Sequence record: NZ_CP145111.1 | Length of the DNA: 64,000 nt | DNA from: a plasmid | Reading direction: 5' to 3' (one strand) | Part shown: positions 1-14,072 of the stretch, one piece after another | Numbering within the stretch: the stretch's first letter is position 1 | Layout of the letters: the number at the start of each line of letters is the position of its first letter | Made by a program: the position numbers and the translations under genes | The notes under the pieces: generated by a model | Database searches by the model: none | Seen by the model: only the letters and a program-made list of their open reading frames with translations | Told to the model about the DNA's origin: nothing

Positions 1-1350
1 GGTGCTTACACCGCTCTTGCAGACAAGAGTCAAAATGTTACTGTAACTGGTACTAATGCCATTTACTCAAAGCCAGGTACTGTTAAGGGTGCCAAGGTCG
101 TTGCTTCTAAGAAGACAGTTGCTAAGTTAGCTGCTTCTAAGAAGTCTAGCGACACTTTCTACGCATACGGTACTAAGACTACTAACCGTGGTTCCGTATA
201 CTACAAGATCGTTACTATGGACAAGAAGTACCGTGGTTACATCTACGGTGGTAAGACTGCCGGTACTTTTGCTGGTGGTATCAAGACTACTGAAACTATG
301 ACCAAGGCAACTATGCCTAAGGAAACCACAGTTTACTTTGCAAATCCTGGTACTACTAATGTTACTTGGACTGCGCCAAAGAATACTGATATCCACGCGA
401 AGAAGAACGTTGTTAATACAACTCCATTTGCTGGTGATAAATTAACGATTACTGATGCAGCCACTAAGACAAAAGAAGGTAGCTTATACTACTACGTTAA
501 GGATGCTACTCATCCTTCAGTTAGTGGCTGGATCTACAGTGGCGCTGTTACTGCTGATTCGTCAGTCTCTTACAATCAAGCTACTGATGTTAAGGTTAAC
601 TTTGTAAGTCCTGAGGGTACTGCTGTTGCATCATCTACTTTACAAAAGCTTACCAAAAACAATGCAGCCAACAATGATATTTCTAAGCCAGCTGTAGCTG
701 CAAATGCTAAGGGTACACAAGTTGGTTTTGATGCTAAAACTAAGGCAAACGATGCTTGGGGTAAGACCGCATTAACTGGTACTGGCTATGTTTACTCCTC
801 AAAGACTGCAAGTAACCAGGCTGCACTTCTTGGTGCCAAGACCGGTGATACGATCACTTTGACGGTTACTAAGGGTACGCAAGTTGTTCAAGGACTTTCT
901 GCTTACTACCAAAAGGGTACTACGGTTACTCAATTAGTTGCTGAAGATAAGAGTGGTACTAGTACTGTTCCTTTGAACCTCCAAGTAAAGTTCCCTACTT
1001 TGGGTGCTGCATTTGCTGGTTCTGAAGGTGCTACTTACACTGCTGCTGATGTTCAAAGCTTCTTGACTACTAACAAGGCCGACACTTTGAACTCAGCTGA
1101 TTACGCTAAGAATAGTAAAGGTGAAATTGTTAAGCCTACGGATAATAGTGCGTTAGGCGTTGATGGAAAGGCTATTGGGTCTAGTTCCACCAAAAAGGCA
1201 CAAGTTTACCATACTGTTTACACGTTAACTTCTGGTGTTGCTGGTACCTATACTGCTAGTGGTAAGGCTTCTGCCTTCTACAACACTGCTAAGGAAGTTA
1301 AGGGTTCTGCTACTACTACTAATACTGGTGCCGTTAGCGTCTTCGGTTAA
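1..1350 (+). CDS. C-terminal portion of a repetitive extracellular/cell-surface protein (5' end outside window)
   Basis: Frame 1 open from base 1 to stop at 1348-1350. Thr/Ala/Gly/Lys/Ser-rich low-complexity repeats typical of Lactobacillales surface proteins. No LPXTG seen. Strong terminator follows. Confidence 0.55.
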   Translation, partial: GAYTALADKSQNVTVTGTNAIYSKPGTVKGAKVVASKKTVAKLAASKKSSDTFYAYGTKTTNRGSVYYKIVTMDKKYRGYIYGGKTAGTFAGGIKTTETMTKATMPKETTVYFANPGTTNVTWTAPKNTDIHAKKNVVNTTPFAGDKLTITDAATKTKEGSLYYYVKDATHPSVSGWIYSGAVTADSSVSYNQATDVKVNFVSPEGTAVASSTLQKLTKNNAANNDISKPAVAANAKGTQVGFDAKTKANDAWGKTALTGTGYVYSSKTASNQAALLGAKTGDTITLTVTKGTQVVQGLSAYYQKGTTVTQLVAEDKSGTSTVPLNLQVKFPTLGAAFAGSEGATYTAADVQSFLTTNKADTLNSADYAKNSKGEIVKPTDNSALGVDGKAIGSSSTKKAQVYHTVYTLTSGVAGTYTASGKASAFYNTAKEVKGSATTTNTGAVSVFG

Positions 1351-1374
1351 TAGTAAATATTTATTTATAGTAAG

Positions 1375-1407
1375 AAAGCCTGAATTTTTAGATTCAGGCT
1401 TTTTTAT
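1375..1407 (+). terminator. rho-independent terminator
   Basis: Hairpin AAGCCTGAATttttaGATTCAGGCTT followed by a T6 run. Confidence 0.65.
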
Positions 1408-1516
1408 ATTCAACTTGATTATATAATTTTGTATACGTAATACGGCAGTAGGCATCTGGCTGAACAGTGTGCGATCCATGGTATTTGCATATTTTTTGAT
1501 GATATAAAACATCCTT

Positions 1517-1828
1517 TTAAATAAATTCCAGATCCATTAGGGACTCTTCCAAGCTATCAATGGTTTCATTGCGTTCCATATAATCAACCCAGCCATCATA
1601 AGATTTTCGCTGACGGGGCTTCATGGCTGAACTCAATTTGGCTTGGATATTGCTAATGAATTTAATGACAGCACTGCTGGTCTCATTTTTAATGCGCAGG
1701 CTACTCCACTTTTTATTGGTGGGGCGGTCTGCGTTTTGTTCGTTTAAGAACGCAGCATATTTATCTCGAAAATTATCGACAATCTGACTGTTTGCTTCCA
1801 AGTATTCTTCTAATTCAAACGTTGTCAT
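1517..1828 (-). CDS. hypothetical protein (103 aa)
   Basis: ORF with RBS GGAGGCTG upstream of ATG (MTTFELEEY...). Sits where an integrase would be expected, but has no recombinase motifs. Confidence 0.45.
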   Translation of the reverse strand: MTTFELEEYLEANSQIVDNFRDKYAAFLNEQNADRPTNKKWSSLRIKNETSSAVIKFISNIQAKLSSAMKPRQRKSYDGWVDYMERNETIDSLEESLMDLEFI

Positions 1829-1954
1829 AATAGCAGCCTCCATATTTAAGTTGTGAATCAACTGATTACATAGGACTCGGACCCATGACCAACCACCCGG
1901 CTAATCAAACGTACGTTCTTTTGAAGTGCTAAGATAAGTCCCCATATAGGGGAC

Positions 1955-2632
1955 TTAAAGGATTACAATACCCTTTATTTTGAAGCTTTCATTCTCAGTG
2001 ACATCCATTGGCGCATATTCAGGGTTCAGGCTGATCAATTGGCATTCATAACTATTTCGATGGTACTTTTTAACGTATGCTTTTCCATCTACGTATGCAA
2101 TAATAATTTGGCCATTAAATGCTTCTTCGGCATATTTAACAAAAATTATTTGCTGATCAGTAAATAATGGTTTCATTGAATCGCCGTTAACTTGTAAAGC
2201 ATAATCGTAATCAGGAATTATACCGGTGTAATCAACTTCTGTTGTATCATCTTGTAACTCCTCACCAGTACCAGCAGATACGGCGCCGAGAAGCTTAATT
2301 TTAGTCCTAGGTATATGAATGACATTGCTGTTTTGCTCTTTTAGCTGCCTATTAGCATAATCATAGACGTTTTGTTGACGATCTGATGTTAGGTCAGACA
2401 CTATATTGTTTATCTTTTCAGGTAAACTGCCGTTAGAAAGCCCCATTAATTCAGCAAGGGAAACATGCAAAGCGCTTGCAACATGCGCAACCACTTCAAT
2501 TGGTAGTTTTTCTATATCGCCTTTTTCATATCTGAATATTGTAGACCTAGAAACACCAATGGCTTCTGCAAGCACGTCGGCACTTATACCTTGCTGTTTG
2601 CGAATAGCTTTCATTCTTTCACCAACATTCAT
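1955..2632 (-). CDS. phage CI-like repressor (HTH_XRE + S24 LexA-like peptidase)
   Basis: N-terminal HTH GISADVLAEAIGVSRSTIFRYEKG. C-terminal S24 motifs (GDSMKP ... K). Divergently arranged to the cro-like gene. Confidence 0.85.
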   Translation of the reverse strand: MNVGERMKAIRKQQGISADVLAEAIGVSRSTIFRYEKGDIEKLPIEVVAHVASALHVSLAELMGLSNGSLPEKINNIVSDLTSDRQQNVYDYANRQLKEQNSNVIHIPRTKIKLLGAVSAGTGEELQDDTTEVDYTGIIPDYDYALQVNGDSMKPLFTDQQIIFVKYAEEAFNGQIIIAYVDGKAYVKKYHRNSYECQLISLNPEYAPMDVTENESFKIKGIVIL

Positions 2633-2799
2633 TTACAATTCCCTCCTTAATATGATAATTTTAGTATACCATATTGTCGCAAAAATGCAACAATAAAAAG
2701 TCGCGTTTTTGCGATCTTGCTATTGCATTTTGCGAAGTTAAGCATTATACTTTATTCATTGAGTCGCAGCAATGCGACTAGGAAGGAGAGGCTACCTAT
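2633..2799. promoter_or_regulatory. genetic-switch intergenic region with operator repeats
   Basis: Four operator-like sites of consensus TCGCA-N4-5-TGCGA (about 2677-2691, 2701-2714, 2726-2738, 2765-2778), including the perfect palindrome GTCGCAGCAATGCGAC. AT-rich -10-like elements on both strands. Confidence 0.5.
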
Positions 2800-3048
2800 A
2801 TGTTAGATATTAAAATTGATCGTCTAAAAGGGCTGATGGTTGAACGGCATGTAACTCACGAAGCATTGTCAATGGCTTTGGGAATTAACCGGAGCACTTT
2901 ATCTAGAAAATTAAAAGATGGCGGAAACAAGTTTACAATTGATGAAATAAAAAAAATGCAAAATTTTATTCCTCTTACAAATGAAGAAGTAGTTGACATT
3001 TTTTTAACAGAAAAAGTCGCATTAACGCGACCAAAACAATCAGTATAG
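2800..3048 (+). CDS. Cro-like HTH regulator (82 aa)
   Basis: HTH ALSMALGINRSTLSRKL. First gene of the rightward early operon. RBS GGAAGGAGAG. Confidence 0.7.
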   Translation: MLDIKIDRLKGLMVERHVTHEALSMALGINRSTLSRKLKDGGNKFTIDEIKKMQNFIPLTNEEVVDIFLTEKVALTRPKQSV

Positions 3049-3054
3049 AAAGGA

Positions 3055-3291
3055 ATGATCCACATGACAGATAAAAACGATGCATATAAAAAAATTGCTA
3101 AAGGAGTTGCTTGTCTAAATCAAGTTGAGTGGGGCATGACTAAAAGCATTATTGATCGATTGTTTGAAAAAAAGATCTCCCATATTCAACTTAACGACTC
3201 TGATCTTCAAAAAAATTTGGCAGACTATTTTGAAGATCAGAATAAAAGCGAAATGGACGATCTTTTCAAAAGTTTCCCATCTAAACCATAA
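3055..3291 (+). CDS. hypothetical early protein (78 aa, N-terminus MIHM)
   Basis: Begins inside the conserved block GAAAGGAATGATCCACATGA. Confidence 0.45.
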   Translation: MIHMTDKNDAYKKIAKGVACLNQVEWGMTKSIIDRLFEKKISHIQLNDSDLQKNLADYFEDQNKSEMDDLFKSFPSKP

Positions 3292-3293
3292 AT

Positions 3294-3527
3294 TTAGTGA
3301 TAACTATTTGTTTTGGAAAATTTGAATTCTCTTATTAAATCTTCATCATTCATTTTTTCCAGAAGGTGTTTGATCACAGGAAGTTGGCTTTTTAGAAATG
3401 GAACTAAATTAGAGTCATCCGTAACTTCCGATTCGATTTTGGGATCATGAGTCAGATCCATAAGCATATAACCTGTTAAAGCTGAAATAATAAACTTTCG
3501 ATCAGATTCTAATAAAAATTTTGTCAT
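3294..3527 (-). CDS. hypothetical protein (78 aa)
   Basis: Minus-strand ORF MTKFLLESDRK... with RBS GAGGTG 6 nt before ATG. The longer track ORF to 3626 is an upstream extension. Confidence 0.45.
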   Translation of the reverse strand: MTKFLLESDRKFIISALTGYMLMDLTHDPKIESEVTDDSNLVPFLKSQLPVIKHLLEKMNDEDLIREFKFSKTNSYH

Positions 3528-3576
3528 ATTATTCACCTCGATCAATTGGAATAACTCAAGTATACAACTGAAAGGA

Positions 3577-4293
3577 ATGAACCACATGAATGACTTAGTA
3601 ATCATGAAAGACAAACAAGCAGTCACAAGTAGCTTGCAAGTAGCAGATACCTTTGGTAAGCGACATGATCACGTGGCAGATAGTATTGATAGCTTAAAAA
3701 AAGATGTCCCCAATTTTGGGGAGATGTTTATCGAAACCAATTTACCAGATTCTTATGGTCGGAACCGACGCGGATATTACATGAACCGTGATGGTTTCAC
3801 CTTACTAGCAATGGGATTCACTGGTAGCAAGGCGCTTCAATTCAAACTCCAGTACATTGATGCATTCAACGAGATGGAAGATCAAGTTAAATTTCAAGTT
3901 CCAGCTACGTTGCCAGAAGCATTACGTTTGGCCGCTGACCAAGCAGAGAAAATTTCAGTGCTGCAGCCTAAAGCAGACTACACCGACAAAATGTTAGCTA
4001 ATCCAGGATTGGAAACAACATCGGTAATCGCTAAGAACTACGGCTACTCAACACGTGAGTTTAATAAGCTGCTGCACGGACTGGGCATTCAATACAAGCA
4101 GGGTAAAACATGGCTGTTGTATGCCAAGTATCAGAATCAAGGATACACACACGTTGAGCCTTACGGATACACCAACAGTGATGGCATCGACAAGGTACGC
4201 AACACAATGAAGTGGACGCAAAAAGGGCAACATTTCCTTTATGACTTTCTTGAATCAAAGGGAATCATGCCTAAAGTTGAGCAGACATCATAA
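3577..4293 (+). CDS. phage antirepressor, Rha N-terminal / KilA-C (ANT) C-terminal
   Basis: N-terminus MNDLVIMKDKQAVTSSLQVADTFGKRHDHV is typical of the Rha family. C-terminal ANT-like region. Confidence 0.75.
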   Translation: MNHMNDLVIMKDKQAVTSSLQVADTFGKRHDHVADSIDSLKKDVPNFGEMFIETNLPDSYGRNRRGYYMNRDGFTLLAMGFTGSKALQFKLQYIDAFNEMEDQVKFQVPATLPEALRLAADQAEKISVLQPKADYTDKMLANPGLETTSVIAKNYGYSTREFNKLLHGLGIQYKQGKTWLLYAKYQNQGYTHVEPYGYTNSDGIDKVRNTMKWTQKGQHFLYDFLESKGIMPKVEQTS

Positions 4294-4305
4294 GGAGGTG
4301 AGCTG

Positions 4306-4491
4306 ATGAAGCTACTACGTCATCACATTACGTTGTACTTCAATGAAAAAAACGAGGCAGTTTTTGAATCTTGGATTCAATTGAGCCTGTTCGGCAGAAA
4401 CTTTTACTTTTCTGACGACAAGATTCTACTGAATCCAGAATCTGCAAACGACCTCGTCGTGTTAGAAAGATTAGTTAGAAATGCTAATTAA
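4306..4491 (+). CDS. small protein B1 (61 aa), paralog of 6014-6211
   Basis: Strong RBS AAGGAGGTGA. Shares NEKNEAVFESWIQL with the 6014 ORF. Convergent with 4484-4657, with overlapping stops. Confidence 0.45.
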   Translation: MKLLRHHITLYFNEKNEAVFESWIQLSLFGRNFYFSDDKILLNPESANDLVVLERLVRNAN

Positions 4492-4657
4492 CCTTTTTCC
4501 ACTTGTTGTGAGTTCCCTGACTAGTTGGCGGTAATGTTGAAGTATTGTTCTTCATCGTTGCGTGATGAGGATTAGATACTTTCCCGCCTCGTGGTCCCAC
4601 TTCAATGTATCGACCGGATTTGACATTATCAATACCCGGTTCAAATAGCTTGGCCAT
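4484..4657 (-). CDS. small protein A1 (57 aa), LFEPG..GPRGGK family
   Basis: RBS AAGGAGGTG 6 nt before ATG. Motif MAKLFEPGIDNVKSGRYIEVGPRGGK is shared with the 6208 and 6441 ORFs. Confidence 0.5.
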   Translation of the reverse strand: MAKLFEPGIDNVKSGRYIEVGPRGGKVSNPHHATMKNNTSTLPPTSQGTHNKWKKVN

Positions 4658-4751
4658 AATTTTCACCTCCTTTGTGACAATTATGCCACTTAAAAGGTGG
4701 ATAGAATTATTTTTTAAGCAAATCGAAGTTGAGCAGACAGAATAGAAAGGA

Positions 4752-5072
4752 ATGATCCACATGAATGACAGCTTAAACGAAAGCGTCATTAAAATCTTGT
4801 CTTCAAAAGAAAGAAGCCTTATGACTGCTGGCGTTTTACCTAAGCATGTAACCATCGCGATTGGCACGCTAGAAATTGATTTAACGATTGAAAGGGTTGG
4901 AGAGAGTGTAAATGCTGATTTTGATAATAAAAAAAGGCTCAAGACATTGTCCAAGTCTAATAGCCTTGAAGCTTTTCTAAGTGCCTCAAAATTGATTAAA
5001 GAGCTTTTTAACGATGAACAAATAACTGAAAGGAATGATCCACACGAAAGAACTAATCAAAGTAAACGTTAA
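4752..5072 (+). CDS. hypothetical early protein (MIHM N-terminus)
   Basis: Starts in the conserved block GAAAGGAATGATCCACATGAATGAC. The 3' end runs through the next copy of the block. Confidence 0.4.
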   Translation: MIHMNDSLNESVIKILSSKERSLMTAGVLPKHVTIAIGTLEIDLTIERVGESVNADFDNKKRLKTLSKSNSLEAFLSASKLIKELFNDEQITERNDPHERTNQSKR

Positions 5073-5301
5073 CACCAAAAAATACCTGCTGACTATTGTC
5101 CATCAGGAAATGAGAACTTTTGTTTTTGCAGATAATGTGTTGCTGAATGGTGTGTTTTATATTGATTTTGAAATTAAGCCCCATGATCCTGATGATTACT
5201 CTTCTGAAGCTAAATGTGTTTTGACAGTTGATAAGAACAAGTTTGCTCAGAATCATAAGGGCGCTAGGATTCTGTACGAAGATGGACAGTTATTTCAATA
5301 G
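5035..5301 (+). CDS. hypothetical early protein (88 aa, MIHT N-terminus)
   Basis: Uses the first ATG of a block copy in which the second ATG is mutated to ACG. Confidence 0.4.
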   Translation: MIHTKELIKVNVNTKKYLLTIVHQEMRTFVFADNVLLNGVFYIDFEIKPHDPDDYSSEAKCVLTVDKNKFAQNHKGARILYEDGQLFQ

Positions 5302-5503
5302 GGTCAATGTCAATGTGAGCAATTACGTCACGGCTAAACTGCCATTCTCTCATTGTTTCTTGAGCATCATGCATAGTCTCGAAATGCTGACGGCTAAATG
5401 AAAAACTTTTCCTATGATCATGTATAGCTTCTTTAACCAATGAATCAAAATATTTAAAATCGGCATCTTTAAGCTTTTCTTTGAAGCCATCTTCCAAACT
5501 CAT
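5264..5503 (-). CDS. hypothetical protein (~79 aa)
   Basis: MSLEDGFKEKLKDADFKYF... Convergent with 5035-5301 with a 38-nt 3' overlap. Confidence 0.4.
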   Translation of the reverse strand: MSLEDGFKEKLKDADFKYFDSLVKEAIHDHRKSFSFSRQHFETMHDAQETMREWQFSRDVIAHIDIDPIEITVHLRTES

Positions 5504-5558
5504 TTTTTTGATTTCCCCCCAACTTGATTTGCTTAATCCAATTATACAACTGAAAGGA

Positions 5559-5714
5559 ATGATCCACATGAAGAAACTGATCAACGTTTTATGGGCAATT
5601 GAAAAAGACCTCCATGTTATCGCAAGTAACACGGAAGCCCATAAGAATGGGAACAGCTCAGTAACCATAACCCCAAAAGGAACTATTGTTAGAAGCAAAA
5701 GGATAAATTACTAG
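5559..5714 (+). CDS. small hypothetical protein (51 aa, MIHM N-terminus)
   Basis: Starts in the conserved block. Stop overlaps the stop of 5711-5944 on the tetranucleotide CTAG. Confidence 0.35.
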   Translation: MIHMKKLINVLWAIEKDLHVIASNTEAHKNGNSSVTITPKGTIVRSKRINY

Positions 5715-5944
5715 TTCTGATCCTGAAAATTGTTATTTGGAGAATCGTAATTAGGTGTGAGGGATCCGTCTGCCTGTTTAATCCAATTGAAATTAGAGAG
5801 AAGCGTTGCTTTCCCAGCGGTTTGCTCAATGATTAGGATTAACCCATTGGAGTATTCATAACGTGCCTTGACGAAATCAGCACGTTGCTCAATTACTTTG
5901 AAATCCTTGGGCATTCCTTTTGGAGTATTAACTTTAATTTCCAT
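5711..5944 (-). CDS. hypothetical protein (77 aa)
   Basis: RBS GAGGTG 8 nt before ATG. The start lies within the conserved divergent block. Confidence 0.45.
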   Translation of the reverse strand: MEIKVNTPKGMPKDFKVIEQRADFVKARYEYSNGLILIIEQTAGKATLLSNFNWIKQADGSLTPNYDSPNNNFQDQN

Positions 5945-6013
5945 TATTTTATCACCTCGATTAATTGGAATAACTCAAGTATATAACTGAAAAAAGAAGA
6001 CAGCATAAGGTAG

Positions 6014-6211
6014 ATGATAAAAATGATTCATCATTACATTACAGAATATCGTAACGAAAAAAACGAAGTTGTATTTGAGTCTTGGATTCAACTTAATTTT
6101 TTAGGACTGGTGTGGTGCTATTCCATTAAAAGCTATGTTTTGGATCCTGGAAAAGACAGCTCCGGTGTAATTGAAAGCTTTTTAAAAACCGTGTCATATC
6201 ATGAACGCTAG
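6014..6211 (+). CDS. small protein B2 (65 aa), paralog of 4306-4491
   Basis: Shares NEKNEVVFESWIQL. Convergent with 6208-6393, with stops overlapping on CTAG. Confidence 0.45.
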   Translation: MIKMIHHYITEYRNEKNEVVFESWIQLNFLGLVWCYSIKSYVLDPGKDSSGVIESFLKTVSYHER

Positions 6212-6393
6212 TCTGTTTCCCTGCTAGCATGCTTCCACTTGTTGTGAGTATTGGCACTAACTGGTGGTAAACGATGACCAGATATGCGTATGGTAGCTTG
6301 TCTTGGATTCTTAAGCTTTCCACCTCGAGGGCCAACTTCAAGATATTTACCGATTGGAACGTTGTCAGTACCTGGTTCAAATAGTCTAACCAT
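6208..6393 (-). CDS. small protein A2 (60 aa), LFEPG..GPRGGK family
   Basis: RBS GAGGTG then ATG (MVRLFEPGTDNVPIGKYLEVGPRGGK). Coordinates follow the supplied ORF track frame. Confidence 0.5.
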   Translation of the reverse strand: MVRLFEPGTDNVPIGKYLEVGPRGGKLKNPRQATIRISGHRLPPVSANTHNKWKHASRETD

Positions 6394-6440
6394 ACTATTC
6401 ACCTCGATCAGTTTGAATAATGGCTATCGAACTAGCATAA

Positions 6441-6677
6441 CTATTTCGATTTTATGTGAGGATAAAAGAACTCTACTTTATTTGGATCGAAAATGATGCT
6501 GCTGAGAATATTTCCAGATTCATCGGTGAGATTGGCAGTTATAAGCAAATTGTCTGGTACACGTCCCTTACCGCCTAAAGGGCCTCTGATAAACAATTCG
6601 GTTCCACTATCAAAGTGAATGTTAAAAACGTTGTCGGTCTTTGAAAGAGCATTTTGCAAAATTTCTGAACTATTCAT
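6441..6677 (-). CDS. small protein A3 (78 aa), divergent member of the GP(R/L)GGK family
   Basis: RBS GAGGTG. Shares ELFIRGPLGGKG with A1/A2. Lies in tandem upstream of A2. Confidence 0.5.
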   Translation of the reverse strand: MNSSEILQNALSKTDNVFNIHFDSGTELFIRGPLGGKGRVPDNLLITANLTDESGNILSSIIFDPNKVEFFYPHIKSK

Positions 6678-6791
6678 AAAATCACCTCAAAATTAATTAT
6701 ACGCCTAAAAAGGAATGGTTATATGTAGCTTTAGAATCTTGGTAAATCAATAGGGTTAAGAACGTATCAACGGAAAGGAATGGTTATATAT

Positions 6792-6950
6792 ATGTACGAA
6801 GTTTACCTGCTAGTTGGCTTTCTAGCCTTCTGGCTAACAGTAATTGTATTGATCGCCTCAGCCGGTTATCAGCTACGGAAGTCAGTGGTACGTGCTGGCG
6901 GATGGGTACCATTTTGGAAAAACTTTTTTGGAATGGAGGAAAGCAAATGA
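6792..6950 (+). CDS. small hydrophobic membrane peptide (52 aa)
   Basis: MYEVYLLVGFLAFWLTVIVLIASAGYQL... One TM segment followed by a basic/aromatic tail. Preceded by the block variant GGAAAGGAATGGTTATATATATG. Not in the ORF track (<60 aa). Confidence 0.4.
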   Translation: MYEVYLLVGFLAFWLTVIVLIASAGYQLRKSVVRAGGWVPFWKNFFGMEESK

Positions 6951-7053
6951 AATTATGGCACAAAAAAAGAGTCCTGGGGGACAGCCCAGAACTCACCGAA
7001 AGATTACATGAATCAAGCATTTTCAATATGAATTCTACACTGAAAAAGGGGCG

Positions 7054-7314
7054 TTGGCAATGGCTTTAGGCGGAACTACCGCAGAATATGACCGGAAATT
7101 TTCTACGCCGGTAGTCACACACATCAATCGGACTGACGAGGAACAAGCGATCTTAGAGCATAACGCCCGCATTGCAGCGTTAAAAACATATGCAGTGGAA
7201 CTGCGCGCACACTTTAAAAATAGTGAGGACGAAAAGCATAAGCGGCATTTGGCATTGAAAATCGACCGCACTAATCAGCGATTGGAACAGCTACGAACGG
7301 AGGATACAAAATGA
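7054..7314 (+). CDS. hypothetical protein (86 aa)
   Basis: ORF with charged coiled-coil-like C-terminus. Overlaps the next gene by 4 nt. Confidence 0.45.
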   Translation: MAMALGGTTAEYDRKFSTPVVTHINRTDEEQAILEHNARIAALKTYAVELRAHFKNSEDEKHKRHLALKIDRTNQRLEQLRTEDTK

Positions 7315-7532
7315 AATTAGCTGAAATAATTGGCGAAAACTTACGTGTATTGATGGCTGTAAAGCAAGTAACCGTAAGCAAAGTACACCAAGAGACCAAC
7401 ATATCAAGATCAACCCTAGCAACGATTAAATCAGGGGAGTTCAAGATGATTCAAACAAGAATTTTGGAAACACTCGCTAATTATTTCGAAGTGCCCGTTG
7501 CTCAGCTAGTTACACCATTTGAGGAGGAATAG
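7311..7532 (+). CDS. HTH_XRE family DNA-binding protein (73 aa)
   Basis: HTH VHQETNISRSTLATIKSGE. Confidence 0.6.
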   Translation: MKLAEIIGENLRVLMAVKQVTVSKVHQETNISRSTLATIKSGEFKMIQTRILETLANYFEVPVAQLVTPFEEE

Positions 7533-7534
7533 GA

Positions 7535-8041
7535 ATGGCAAAAACCGCGTTAGAACTCTACCGACGTTACGAGCTTTTAAACGATCTGATGGGTAGCAAG
7601 ATCAGCAAATACAAAGACGAGATCGACTATGAAACGGATAAAAAGGCATTTGAACAAGATAAGACACTAGTTACAGCTCGTCAGCAGGCACTGCAAGCAG
7701 AAGTTGATGAAGCCTATGGCGAGTTCTTATCCGCTATGGACGGACATGAATCCTTAGATGGCGTTGATCGGGTTCGACATGATCCTTTTAAGAAAAACAG
7801 TTGGCAAGTTAAAGCTAAACTAACCCGTGCCAAGATTGGCAAGCTACCCGACGAGTCTGTACTACAGCAAGCGGTGCAAGAGTACCGGGAGCTTAATGAG
7901 TCACAAATTAAGCAAATGCTGGCTAATGGTGAAATTGCTAAGAGCGGTGATCATATTGTCGGGCCTGGCAATGAGAAGCTGGACGACTATATTTCCGTTG
8001 AAATCAAGCCAGACGAATTTAAAGAAACTAACTCAAAATAA
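7535..8041 (+). CDS. hypothetical protein of the recombination module (168 aa)
   Basis: ORF immediately upstream of the ERF-like gene, translationally coupled. Confidence 0.5.
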   Translation: MAKTALELYRRYELLNDLMGSKISKYKDEIDYETDKKAFEQDKTLVTARQQALQAEVDEAYGEFLSAMDGHESLDGVDRVRHDPFKKNSWQVKAKLTRAKIGKLPDESVLQQAVQEYRELNESQIKQMLANGEIAKSGDHIVGPGNEKLDDYISVEIKPDEFKETNSK

Positions 8042-8054
8042 GTAGGAGACAAAC

Positions 8055-8738
8055 ATGGAAAAAAGTGAATCAATTAAAAACTTGGCCACCAGCATGGCAC
8101 AATTCCGTAAGAATTTACTCAAAGCACAACCAAGTAAAGATGGAAAAAGTCATTATGGGAACTATGTAACTTTGGAAGACTTAACCGCTGCAGTAGATAG
8201 GGCGCTCCCAGAGTCGTTAGGTTATACGCAGGAAGCGACCAGCGATCCTAATGGTGTCTCTATTACGACTATGCTGTTTGATGCTAGTGGCGAGTACATC
8301 ATTTACAATCCACTTAGCATGCCAGTGCAGCGTAAAGACGCGCAGGCATTCGGCTCTGCTGAAACTTATGCACGACGATATAGTTTATCAGCAGCATTCG
8401 GTGTATCCGCTTCTAAAGATGACGATGGACAACAGGCAACTAAAGCGGCTCCTAACAACCGTACGGCACAACAACCAGCTCATAGGAATAACGGGACACA
8501 ACAAAGCAATCGTCAACCCCTGCCTGTAACTAAACAGCAGGCCACAACACTTAATGGATTGTTTGAGGCAATGAGTAAGGCAGCAAGCGCCCCAATTGAA
8601 GCTGTTAGAAACGGTTATCTGGAAAAATTAAACGTTAGCCAGGTCAAAGATTTGACGCATGATGGCGCTAACCAACTGATCAGCCTAGTGACTGTTCAAT
8701 TAAAAAATCAAAGTGAGAAGGGGAATTCTAATGATTAA
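8055..8738 (+). CDS. ERF-family single-strand annealing protein
   Basis: Motif [18 protein letters not shown] plus a Gln/Asn-rich C-terminus. Gene order ERF-SSB. Confidence 0.6.
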
Positions 8739-14012: not shown

Positions 14013-14072
14013 GCACGTGCATAGCTCAACGGCAGAGCAAAGAAGATACGGGTTCGACTCCCGTTGCACGTA
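14013..14072 (+). tRNA. truncated tRNA-like element (acceptor, D-arm, T-arm; no anticodon arm)
   Basis: Acceptor pairing ACGTGCA/TGCACGT. D-arm GCTC-AACGGCA-GAGC. Canonical T-arm CGGGTTCGACTCCCG. Only ~60 nt. Confidence 0.3.

Follow-up and report, generated by a model that had tools for sequence, protein, structure and literature searches.

Background

The early region of a prophage found in record NZ_CP145111.1, a plasmid sequence of which one stretch of 64,000 nucleotides (hereafter the window) was analysed, raises the question of why five genes that are unrelated to each other should all be preceded by the same short sequence, here called the block, whose 19-nt core reads GAAAGGAATGATCCACATG. 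A preliminary description of this region, made from the sequence alone, pictured it as a series of modular cassettes separated either by a recombinogenic boundary sequence or by a shared promoter or translation-initiation unit. The comparison with related prophages presented here indicates that two of these roles are probably combined, the block being a portable translation-start adaptor that doubles as a microhomology for the exchange of gene cassettes.

The mosaic structure of phage genomes has been explained in two ways, by random illegitimate joints followed by selection or by homologous exchange at short linkers. Linker or boundary sequences at the junctions of lambdoid modules belong to the modular theory of Susskind and Botstein, and they have reportedly been described in HK620 and P22-like phages; generally they are intergenic patches without an assigned function.

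Copies and alleles of the block

The region in question is the lysogeny-switch and early-lytic end of the prophage (Table 1). Positions 1-8632 of the window are 100% identical to contig CABMJF010000019.1 (NCBI assembly GCA_902386565.1), on which the gene starts were checked with an independent gene caller; the related phage and prophage loci compared with the window are designated by L-numbers (L021, L051, L097 etc.). A search of the window recovered all five copies of the core reported in the preliminary description, each of them on the + strand, where dinucleotide shuffles lead one to expect 0.00-0.03 copies, and no further copy on either strand of the 64 kb. No sequence complementary to the block occurs elsewhere in the window, and all copies share one orientation and lie within the first ~4 kb of the early operon. 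The degenerate variants previously noted at 6706-6726 and 6769-6794 are genuine as well and form a distinct second allele, GAAAGGAATGGTTATAT(AT)ATG, while the longer version noted at 3534 and 5953 is indeed present at both places and has a third, truncated copy.

A scan for the second allele returned about 20 genuine matches in this phage group, in which it is associated with a single gene, the other matches being chance occurrences in unrelated viral contigs. This gene, which begins MYEVYLL behind the second allele, reads MNEVYLL behind the canonical block in L021, L026, L032 and L042, hence codon 2 belongs to the exchanged unit and travels with the block. The 65 bp that separate the relic of the second allele from the next copy match a flank found in front of this gene in other phages, and together with the relic they look like the scar of a cassette event.

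The block as a translation-initiation region

The block comprises an upstream stop codon (TAG or TGA), an extended Shine-Dalgarno (SD) sequence, a 9-nt spacer ATGATCCAC, an ATG and, usually, codon 2 with the beginning of codon 3 (AAY GA). The first of its two ATG triplets directly abuts the SD sequence GAAAGGA; between AGGA and the second there are 9 nt, which is the usual distance. According to the gene caller, orfA, ant and orfE all begin with the second ATG, and in the variants AATAATTCAC and AGTGATCC found in relatives it is the first ATG that is destroyed and the second that is retained. Because of the spacing, the gene calls and these natural variants, the second ATG is most probably the true start, so that the genes begin with M-T/N/K..., and the reading frame through the first ATG, from which the preliminary description had derived common MIHM or MNHM N-termini, is unlikely and was rejected. 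The exception is copy 4, in which the second ATG is replaced by ACG, so that orfF can start only at the first one. Copy 4 (5024-5072) lies in the reading frame of orfE, which runs on through the block for 17 codons; in L051, orfE ends before this site. The ACG is also found in the L. cerevisiae prophage (L021/L084), while other orthologues have ATG.

Two contexts of the block can be distinguished. In class A, which includes cro in the window, at least eight unrelated upstream families in the relatives and the majority of the relatives' copies, the block shares its initial one or more bases with the stop codon of the + strand gene in front of it (TAGAAAGG or TGAAAGG). In class B, the block forms the right end of a ~57-nt module situated between two divergent start codons. 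The idea of a common translation-initiation unit is borne out. Many unrelated proteins encoded here begin with MN(D/E), and this shared N-terminus is evidently a footprint of the block, not a sign of homology.

No structure was found in the block in any of the five copies when the + strand RNA of the translation-initiation regions (TIRs) was folded. At four of the five copies the minimum free energy amounts to -1.9 to -5.7 kcal/mol, no better than in shuffled sequences, and the stronger fold around copy 3 (-10.8 kcal/mol, z -1.8) is due to a hairpin that lies beyond the block, in the coding sequence that follows. Nor does the block match any Rfam family: at gathering thresholds the only match in the whole window is a tRNA (14015-14072), and at permissive thresholds the 2400-7400 segment gives only matches at chance level.

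The block does resemble the complement of the 3' tail of 16S rRNA (AGAAAGGAGGTGATCCAG versus (A)GAAAGGA-ATGATCCAC). The tail used was that of L. plantarum, with the end TGGATCACCTCCTTTCT as known from a primer in the literature (PMC4739695); the host of the window may have a different one. For the bipartite duplex (8 + 7 bp) predicted with this tail, the energy is -19.6 kcal/mol, compared with -10.5 kcal/mol for the SD sequence followed by a scrambled spacer. The three canonical copies rank 1-3 among the 543 ATG codons of the window that open at least 45 codons, and only 1.3% of random 9-nt spacers do as well. Extended pairing with the 16S rRNA is thus likely to be both the origin of the sequence and a contributor to its function. 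On the other strand, a transcript running over copy 2 (3520-3590) is predicted to fold so that the complement of the block covers the SD sequence and the ATG of orfB (-16.7 kcal/mol, z -2.2, equalled by 2 of 200 shuffles); such a transcript would begin inside ant, and the fold may be a by-product of two TIRs facing each other.

The constancy of the block was assessed in 38 distinct starts gathered via the Ant protein, not via the block. The 16 nt that precede the ATG differ from the core by 0-2 bases in 22 of them and by 8-15 bases in the remaining 16, with no intermediate numbers of mismatches. Among pairs that bear the block, mean pairwise identity is 0.90 in the block itself, 0.66 in the first 150 nt of ant and 0.34 upstream, so that the block is also conserved well above the third codon positions next to it (0.52). 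It appears to be kept nearly unchanged or else swapped as a whole, which fits purifying selection, frequent homogenisation, or both. An unrelated TIR, GAGGAGGACTAATT, joins the upstream flank (…aaaattttaggaatt…) to the antirepressor gene in L098 (~2790-2840), where the block joins the same flank (aaaattttaggaatt) to the antirepressor in L155 and L165; hence the TIR itself is replaceable between constant flanks.

Reassortment of the flanking genes

We clustered the 120 nt on each side of the block in 82 non-identical contexts from prophages of Levilactobacillus and Lactiplantibacillus. The 28 upstream families and 16 downstream families thus obtained occur in 50 combinations, among which there are 12 complete 2x2 four-gamete squares, i.e. 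cases in which both upstream types are found with both downstream types. Such squares require recombination between the two sides, or else repeated independent origin. In pairs with the same upstream but different downstream families, similarity ends at block positions 19-24 in 28 of 34 cases, often after ATG-AAY-GA; in pairs with the same downstream but different upstream families, it begins between -2 and +3 in 136 of 170. The 16 downstream nucleotide clusters could be grouped into about 11 unrelated protein families, and the block is common to phages with at least 10 different flanks at the end of cro.

Comparison of individual relatives substantiated the expectation that the block would mark the breakpoints of gene gain and loss. 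The 522-bp cassette between copies 1 and 2 is missing from L093, L168, L171 and L172, which possess a single block in its place. The last three of these encode an identical cI protein. Their identity with the window is 99.8-99.9% as far as the final base of copy 1 (3067) and 83% from the first base of copy 2 (3570) onward, so that a sharp mosaic joint coincides with the block. Conversely, in L097 the match to the window extends to 3067 and resumes at 3041, and where the window has one block, L097 carries two, with an additional 760-bp cassette with a Bro-N antirepressor between them. In L051, the cassette between copies 4 and 5 is replaced by 564 unrelated bp, both sides being 98-99% identical to the window.

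The scan of one genome per species located the exact core in 14 loci from 12 species of Levilactobacillus, Lactiplantibacillus and Lactobacillus, all of them in prophage early regions, and in about 20 further single matches in unrelated bacteria, compared with the ~17 that we estimate to be expected by chance in 596 Gb. In IMG/VR the core was found in 53 stretches, mostly prophages of ~40 kb and including the published phages Sha1 and Lb. Overall, about 60 prophage loci from two genera have the exact block, while their flanks are unrelated; a search of the literature did not retrieve its sequence. Two exact blocks (at 5330 and 6020) were also found in L217 (OP650937.1, 'Hujiaoplasma phage zrk29-2', UNVERIFIED_ORG), whose flanks are the same as those of the Lactobacillaceae prophage L072 and which has a Rha-type antirepressor; its attribution to a deep-sea host from the Tenericutes looks doubtful.

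The extended module and the promoter question

The extended version of the block corresponds to the class B module, which can be written as CAT-N7-9-CACCTCGATyAATTGGAATAACyCAAG-TATAC-AACT-block. Its CACCTC, read on the reverse strand, is the GAGGTG SD sequence of the minus-strand genes with starts at 3527, 5944 and 6393, as had been proposed for divergent genes in the preliminary description. The right half of the module is not always the block: the alternative GAAAAAAGAAGACAGCATAAGG..., with an ordinary SD sequence, serves orfC' in the window and orfH in L051 (4440-4520), which means that at least one further TIR is common to unrelated genes.

The TATAC box, whose minus-strand sequence is TATAAT or TATACT, is separated from the block by 4 nt. 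The preliminary description allowed for a shared promoter. It is conceivable that transcription of each cassette is restarted by a promoter in the block or in its extended version, with this box as the -10 element for the + strand, the minus strand or both, yet on the whole we find this quite unlikely. The minus-strand TATAAT/TATACT lies 27-36 nt before the minus-strand ATG in 15 of 15 divergent modules, the + strand of these modules reads TCGATY, 16-17 nt, TATACA, the ~57-nt module is conserved above the surrounding genes, and a promoter scan gave one 9/12 match on the minus strand across copy 1. The same scan, which relied on consensus matching alone, revealed no sigma-70-type match on the + strand at any block, and the region contains 18 promoter-like sites compared with 17.9 in shuffles, i.e. 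no enrichment. Moreover, neither a -35 nor an extended -10 (TG) element is conserved in the divergent modules, most of the relatives' copies (class A) sit on the stop codon of an upstream gene in the operon and leave no room for a promoter, and the distance that is fixed is that from the block to the ATG, as expected of an SD sequence. It is reasonable to retain the TATAC/TATAAT box of the extended version as a candidate -10 element, above all for the minus-strand genes. The scan for terminator-like sites found none at the blocks.

Proposed mechanism and alternative explanations

If the block is an adaptor of the kind proposed here, a gene placed behind it would be translated, in class A by coupling to the gene that precedes it and in class B from a short leader, and complementarity to the 16S tail combined with unstructured mRNA would ensure strong recruitment of ribosomes, whatever the gene. 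The presence of the same ~19-27 identical bases at many boundaries would at the same time provide short homologies for exchange, duplication, insertion and deletion, whether the partners are in one genome, in co-resident prophages, or in a prophage and a phage that infects its host. A crossover in the block would join the new gene precisely at its start codon and retain the upstream stop, hence recombinants would be viable with both neighbours intact. The exchange would be homologous and probably carried out by the ERF-type annealing protein of the phage, or else by RecA of the host; the extended pairing would be used, and translational selection would hold the block constant. Annealing proteins of the Red-beta/Erf/Sak type make mosaics via short or diverged homologies, shorter and more diverged than those used by RecA (De Paepe et al. 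2014, PMC3945230).

Several observations speak against this explanation or limit its scope. The T12A substitution, which is common and occurs in copy 2, weakens the second helix (duplex -14.3 kcal/mol), and the AATAATTCAC variant reduces the duplex to -11.8 kcal/mol, so the extended pairing is not strictly maintained; besides, the duplex reaches to within 1 nt of the AUG, and part of it would have to melt for placement of the start codon. The block is not essential, since the same gene has an ordinary SD sequence in close relatives. Most of the loci were found by searching for the block, which inflates its frequency and is corrected only in part by the Ant-based sample, and the joints of phage mosaics fall at gene boundaries anyway, so that co-location does not prove that the block causes the exchange. 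Red-beta-type annealing proteins are reported to need at least 23-27 bp for efficient pairing, and RecA 31-34 bp (PMC3945230), so that the block, with 19-24 bp, is at or below the minimal length. Finally, not all joints in the region involve the block: at the joint at 5021 L051 has no block, the counterparts of the window's copies 4 and 5 being ordinary TIRs, and on either side of the orfC/orfD cassette there is a 19-nt direct repeat of the 3' end of ant (AAGTTGAGCAGACA..., at 4274-4292 and 4726-4744), i.e. its joint uses a different microhomology. Joints with other repeats or without the block argue for general short-homology recombination and not for a dedicated site-specific system, and we therefore regard the block as a favoured microhomology, not as a dedicated recombination site.

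These last observations also bear on the idea that the cassettes are moved by site-specific recombination of the integron or homing-endonuclease type. A repeated site that bounds cassettes, and insertions and deletions flanked by two copies of it, are what such a system would leave behind, but the block has neither dyad symmetry nor a hairpin, the integrase and the ERF protein are the only recombinases beside the array, the cassettes hold genes in both orientations, other short repeats act as joints in the same region, and the unit of crossover coincides with a functional TIR, all of which makes this idea extremely improbable. We give just as little credit to the notion of an ordinary strong ribosome-binding site that was multiplied by recent local duplications. 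True paralogous duplications do exist here (orfC/orfD and orfC'/orfD'), and before genes of unrelated bacteria the 19-mer occurs at chance frequency (~20 seen, ~17 expected); the five downstream genes, though, are unrelated, the block is exact in two genera in spite of unrelated flanks at ~60 loci, and the reassortment matrix contradicts such an origin.

A less improbable explanation, albeit still unlikely in our judgement, is that the block is a translational operator, a role known for T4 RegA and proposed for the start-associated sequences (SAS) of mycobacteriophages that are discussed below. An RNA-binding protein or a small RNA, of phage or host, would co-regulate the early genes, and recombination would be a side effect. 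Such a role would suit the near invariance of the non-SD positions, far above the conservation of neighbouring synonymous sites, the confinement to ~4 kb of the early operon in one orientation, the occurrence of all Lactobacillaceae matches of the genome scan in prophage early regions, and the bimodal pattern in which the block is either present or replaced, without gradual decay. Set against this, no candidate regulator was identified, the 64 kb hold no complementary sequence elsewhere, complementarity to the 16S tail largely accounts for the conserved non-SD positions, phages with different immunity regions share the block, and ordinary SD sequences are interchangeable with it for the same genes. 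There is a slim chance that a regulon of early genes is defined by the block as a phage-specific "16S-tail clamp" or as a translational operator, either by pairing with nearly the whole 18-nt tail or by being read by a factor. In that case messages of the induced phage would obtain priority or timed control, and the regulon could be extended by recombination, as every member shares the block, making it a device for both expression and evolvability; this would also supply a functional answer for SAS-type repeats of other phages.

Comparison with known systems

Of the elements described so far, SAS and their extended form (ESAS) come closest to the block. Those of cluster K mycobacteriophages have a 13-bp consensus, GGGATAGGAGCCC, which contains an SD sequence and lies before ATG starts; their authors stressed that the additional conserved bases cannot pair (2011, PMC3203893), and by 2025 their function had yet to be tested (PMC12699233). 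Like SAS, the block is a short asymmetric repeat with an SD sequence a few bases before the ATG and in one orientation, confined to a non-structural arm or region, in front of genes from different families (SAS being absent from host genes); in both, the upstream stop is sometimes included, conservation exceeds the canonical SD sequence and a subset of copies has an extended element. The five copies and two variants of the window all lie on the + strand between 3.0 and 6.8 kb, with an ATG that opens a reading frame at the end of each or shortly after it. However, GAAAGGAATGATCCACATG does not fit the consensus GGGATAGGAGCCC with up to 2 deviations, as only AGGA of the SD sequence is common to both, and no pair of 17-bp imperfect inverted repeats of the ESAS type was found in the extended version, which is a divergent-gene intergenic module and whose + strand fold is weaker than that of shuffles. 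The block further differs in the host phylum, in conservation that runs through the spacer, the ATG and codon 2, in the complementarity of its extra conserved bases to the 16S tail, and in acting as a recombination joint, which is not claimed for SAS. We conclude that it is SAS-like in position, not a member of the SAS family.

Another parallel is provided by the PeSL cassettes of T4-type phages, which combine a sigma-70 promoter with a terminator stem-loop (Arbiol et al. 2010, PMC2839356; PMC4122927). In both cases a conserved regulatory motif is repeated between small genes, mostly of unknown function, in a plastic region and bounds insertions, deletions and replacements among close relatives (here relative to L097, L093, L168, L171, L172 and L051); for both, recombination between motifs is proposed as the means of shuffling. 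In contrast to PeSL, the block is a translation signal and not a promoter-terminator, neither a sigma-70 promoter match (consensus scan) nor a terminator stem-loop being found at the blocks. It does not resemble integron attC sites either, as neither dyad symmetry nor a stable fold was detected in it, and an integron's adjacent IntI and cassettes in a single orientation are likewise not found here: genes lie on both strands, and the only tyrosine-recombinase candidate is the prophage integrase, 1.7 kb away past cI. A reading of the block as an operator or stoperator (stoperators being the repressor sites dispersed over the genomes of cluster A mycobacteriophages, related in sequence to the phage's own operator and immunity-specific) was rejected, because it is unrelated to the GTCGC-N5-GCGAC repeats between cI and cro and crosses immunity types, being shared by at least 10 flanks at the end of cro.

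In its evolutionary role the block also resembles the linkers of lambdoid phages, i.e. short conserved sequences between non-homologous genes whose two sides reassort independently, as seen here in the 50 combinations of 28 x 16 families, the 12 squares and the breaks at the edges of the block. Unlike lambdoid linkers, the block is itself a functional TIR that includes the start codon. The scheme of De Paepe et al. (2014) is applicable inasmuch as an ERF protein is encoded here too, which may have made the joints at the block. The block is thus a clear case of a linker that shapes phage mosaicism, not a new kind of system.

Gene map and cargo

Coordinates of the features are given in Table 1. 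The alternation of + and - genes in the preliminary description is confirmed: six small minus-strand open reading frames with strong SD sequences are interspersed among the + genes, and convergent pairs abut or overlap by 4-38 nt at their 3' ends (3291-3294, 4484-4491, 5264-5301, 5711-5714 and 6208-6211), two of them sharing a CTAG palindrome as a double stop. As this arrangement leaves no space for terminators, rightward early transcription would be antisense to each of the minus-strand genes. A further HTH (helix-turn-helix) gene is encoded further to the right, as is the ERF recombinase.

Table 1. Coordinates of the prophage genes, block copies, extended modules and cassettes in the window
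Feature	Position	Strand	Remarks
Integrase	217-1350		Tyrosine-recombinase candidate
cI-type repressor	1955-2632	-	HTH + Peptidase_S24
cro-type HTH gene	2800-3048	+	TAG stop 3046-3048
Block copy 1	3048-3066	+	TAG of cro overlaps first base; ATG 3064-3066 starts orfA
orfA	3064-3291	+	75 aa
Cassette 1	3068-3569		orfA, orfB and extended intergenic element, between copies 1 and 2
orfB	3294-3527	-	SD = CACCTC, reverse strand, in extended version
Extended version	3534-3573		CACCTCGATyAATTGGAATAACTCAAGTATAyAACTGAAA (+ strand); runs into copy 2 (to 3588); parts in 3534-3588: SD of orfB (CACCTC), conserved GATCAATTGGAATAACTCAAG, palindromic GTATAC box 3560-3565, GAAAGGAATGAACCACATG
Block copy 2	3570-3588	+	T12A mismatch; GAAAGGAATGAACCACATG; ATG 3586-3588 starts ant
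ant, Rha/KilAC antirepressor	3586-4293	+	235 aa; start ATG 3586-3588
Cassette orfC + orfD	4294-4725		Flanked by 19-nt ant-end repeat, not blocks; paralogous copy 6023-6393
orfC	4306-4491	+	phrog_10400
orfD	4484-4657	-	YjzC-like
Block copy 3	4745-4763	+	TAG and 19-nt relic of ant 3' end (4726-4744) upstream; ATG 4761-4763 starts orfE
orfE	4761-5072	+	103 aa
Cassette orfF + orfG	5022-5565		Between copies 4 and 5
Block copy 4	5028-5046	+	Within 3' end of orfE; second ATG replaced by ACG; serves orfF
orfF	5035-5301	+	
orfG	5264-5503	-	Start at 5503, 48 nt upstream of block copy 5
Block copy 5	5552-5570	+	ATTATAC box in 5541-5570 unit; ATG 5568-5570 starts orfH
orfH	5568-5714	+	phrog_37331; 48 aa
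Extended version	5953-5992 (unit to 6025)		Right half is an ordinary TIR (GAAAAAAGAAGACAGCATAAGG...ATG), not the block; serves orfC'
orfC'	6023-6211	+	
orfD'	6208-6393	-	YjzC-like
Truncated extended version	6391-6420		Only the part adjoining the minus-strand start of orfD'
Second allele, relic	6708-6725	+	AAAAGGAATGGTTATATG, directly followed by TAG; no gene
Second allele	6773-6794	+	GAAAGGAATGGTTATATATATG; ATG 6792-6794 starts 52-aa membrane peptide
Membrane peptide	start ATG 6792-6794	+	52 aa; MYEVYLLVGF
ERF-family single-strand annealing protein	8055-8738	+	Same prophage, 3 kb downstream

The genes found behind the block in relatives include antirepressors of four architectures (Phage_pRha+ANT; Bro-N; ORF6N+ORF6C; AntA+ANT) and at least six small proteins of unknown function. 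Searches of Pfam and PHROGs with the ten small cargo proteins of the window yielded only YjzC (PF14168) and three PHROGs of unknown function, and PADLOC returned no defence match for any of the ten. The suggestion of defence or anti-defence cargo is thus not supported, the recognisable cargo consisting of antirepressors and two YjzC-like proteins. The latter are encoded in two paralogous convergent pairs (4306-4657 and 6023-6393; 71-76% DNA identity), in each of which a + strand phrog_10400 gene (61/62 aa) faces a minus-strand YjzC-like gene (PF14168, phrog_3202); this pair seems to have been inherited and duplicated as a unit.

Other features of the region are the operator-like repeats GTCGC-N5-GCGAC between cI and cro (2677-2714 and 2754-2779), with one more in the 3' end of cro (3015-3031), 17 nt before copy 1; the same cro-end flank is found in the relatives L040, L048, L049, L051 and L073. 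An inverted repeat of 21 nt, 86% complementary and with 1 nt between its arms, lies inside orfA (3199-3241), a segment that L076 matches in both orientations. The tRNA mentioned above (14015-14072, +; RF00005, 48 bits) lies ~7 kb past the 3040-6800 region and possibly inside the prophage.

Conclusions

The locus offers a compact natural case for the view that phage mosaics arise by exchange at short linkers, one in which the linker has its own function in starting translation, and this function explains why the linker would be retained and why recombinants would be viable. It also provides a Gram-positive equivalent of the mycobacteriophage SAS repeats, which are unexplained, and a system that can be put to the test in tractable lactic acid bacteria, with an element of only 19-24 bp, an ERF recombinase and many donor prophages. 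For annotation, it follows that starts should be placed at the second ATG and that a common MN(D/E) should not be read as homology. In strains used as starter cultures or probiotics, the block indicates where the early regions of prophages, including their antirepressor genes, are most likely to be swapped.

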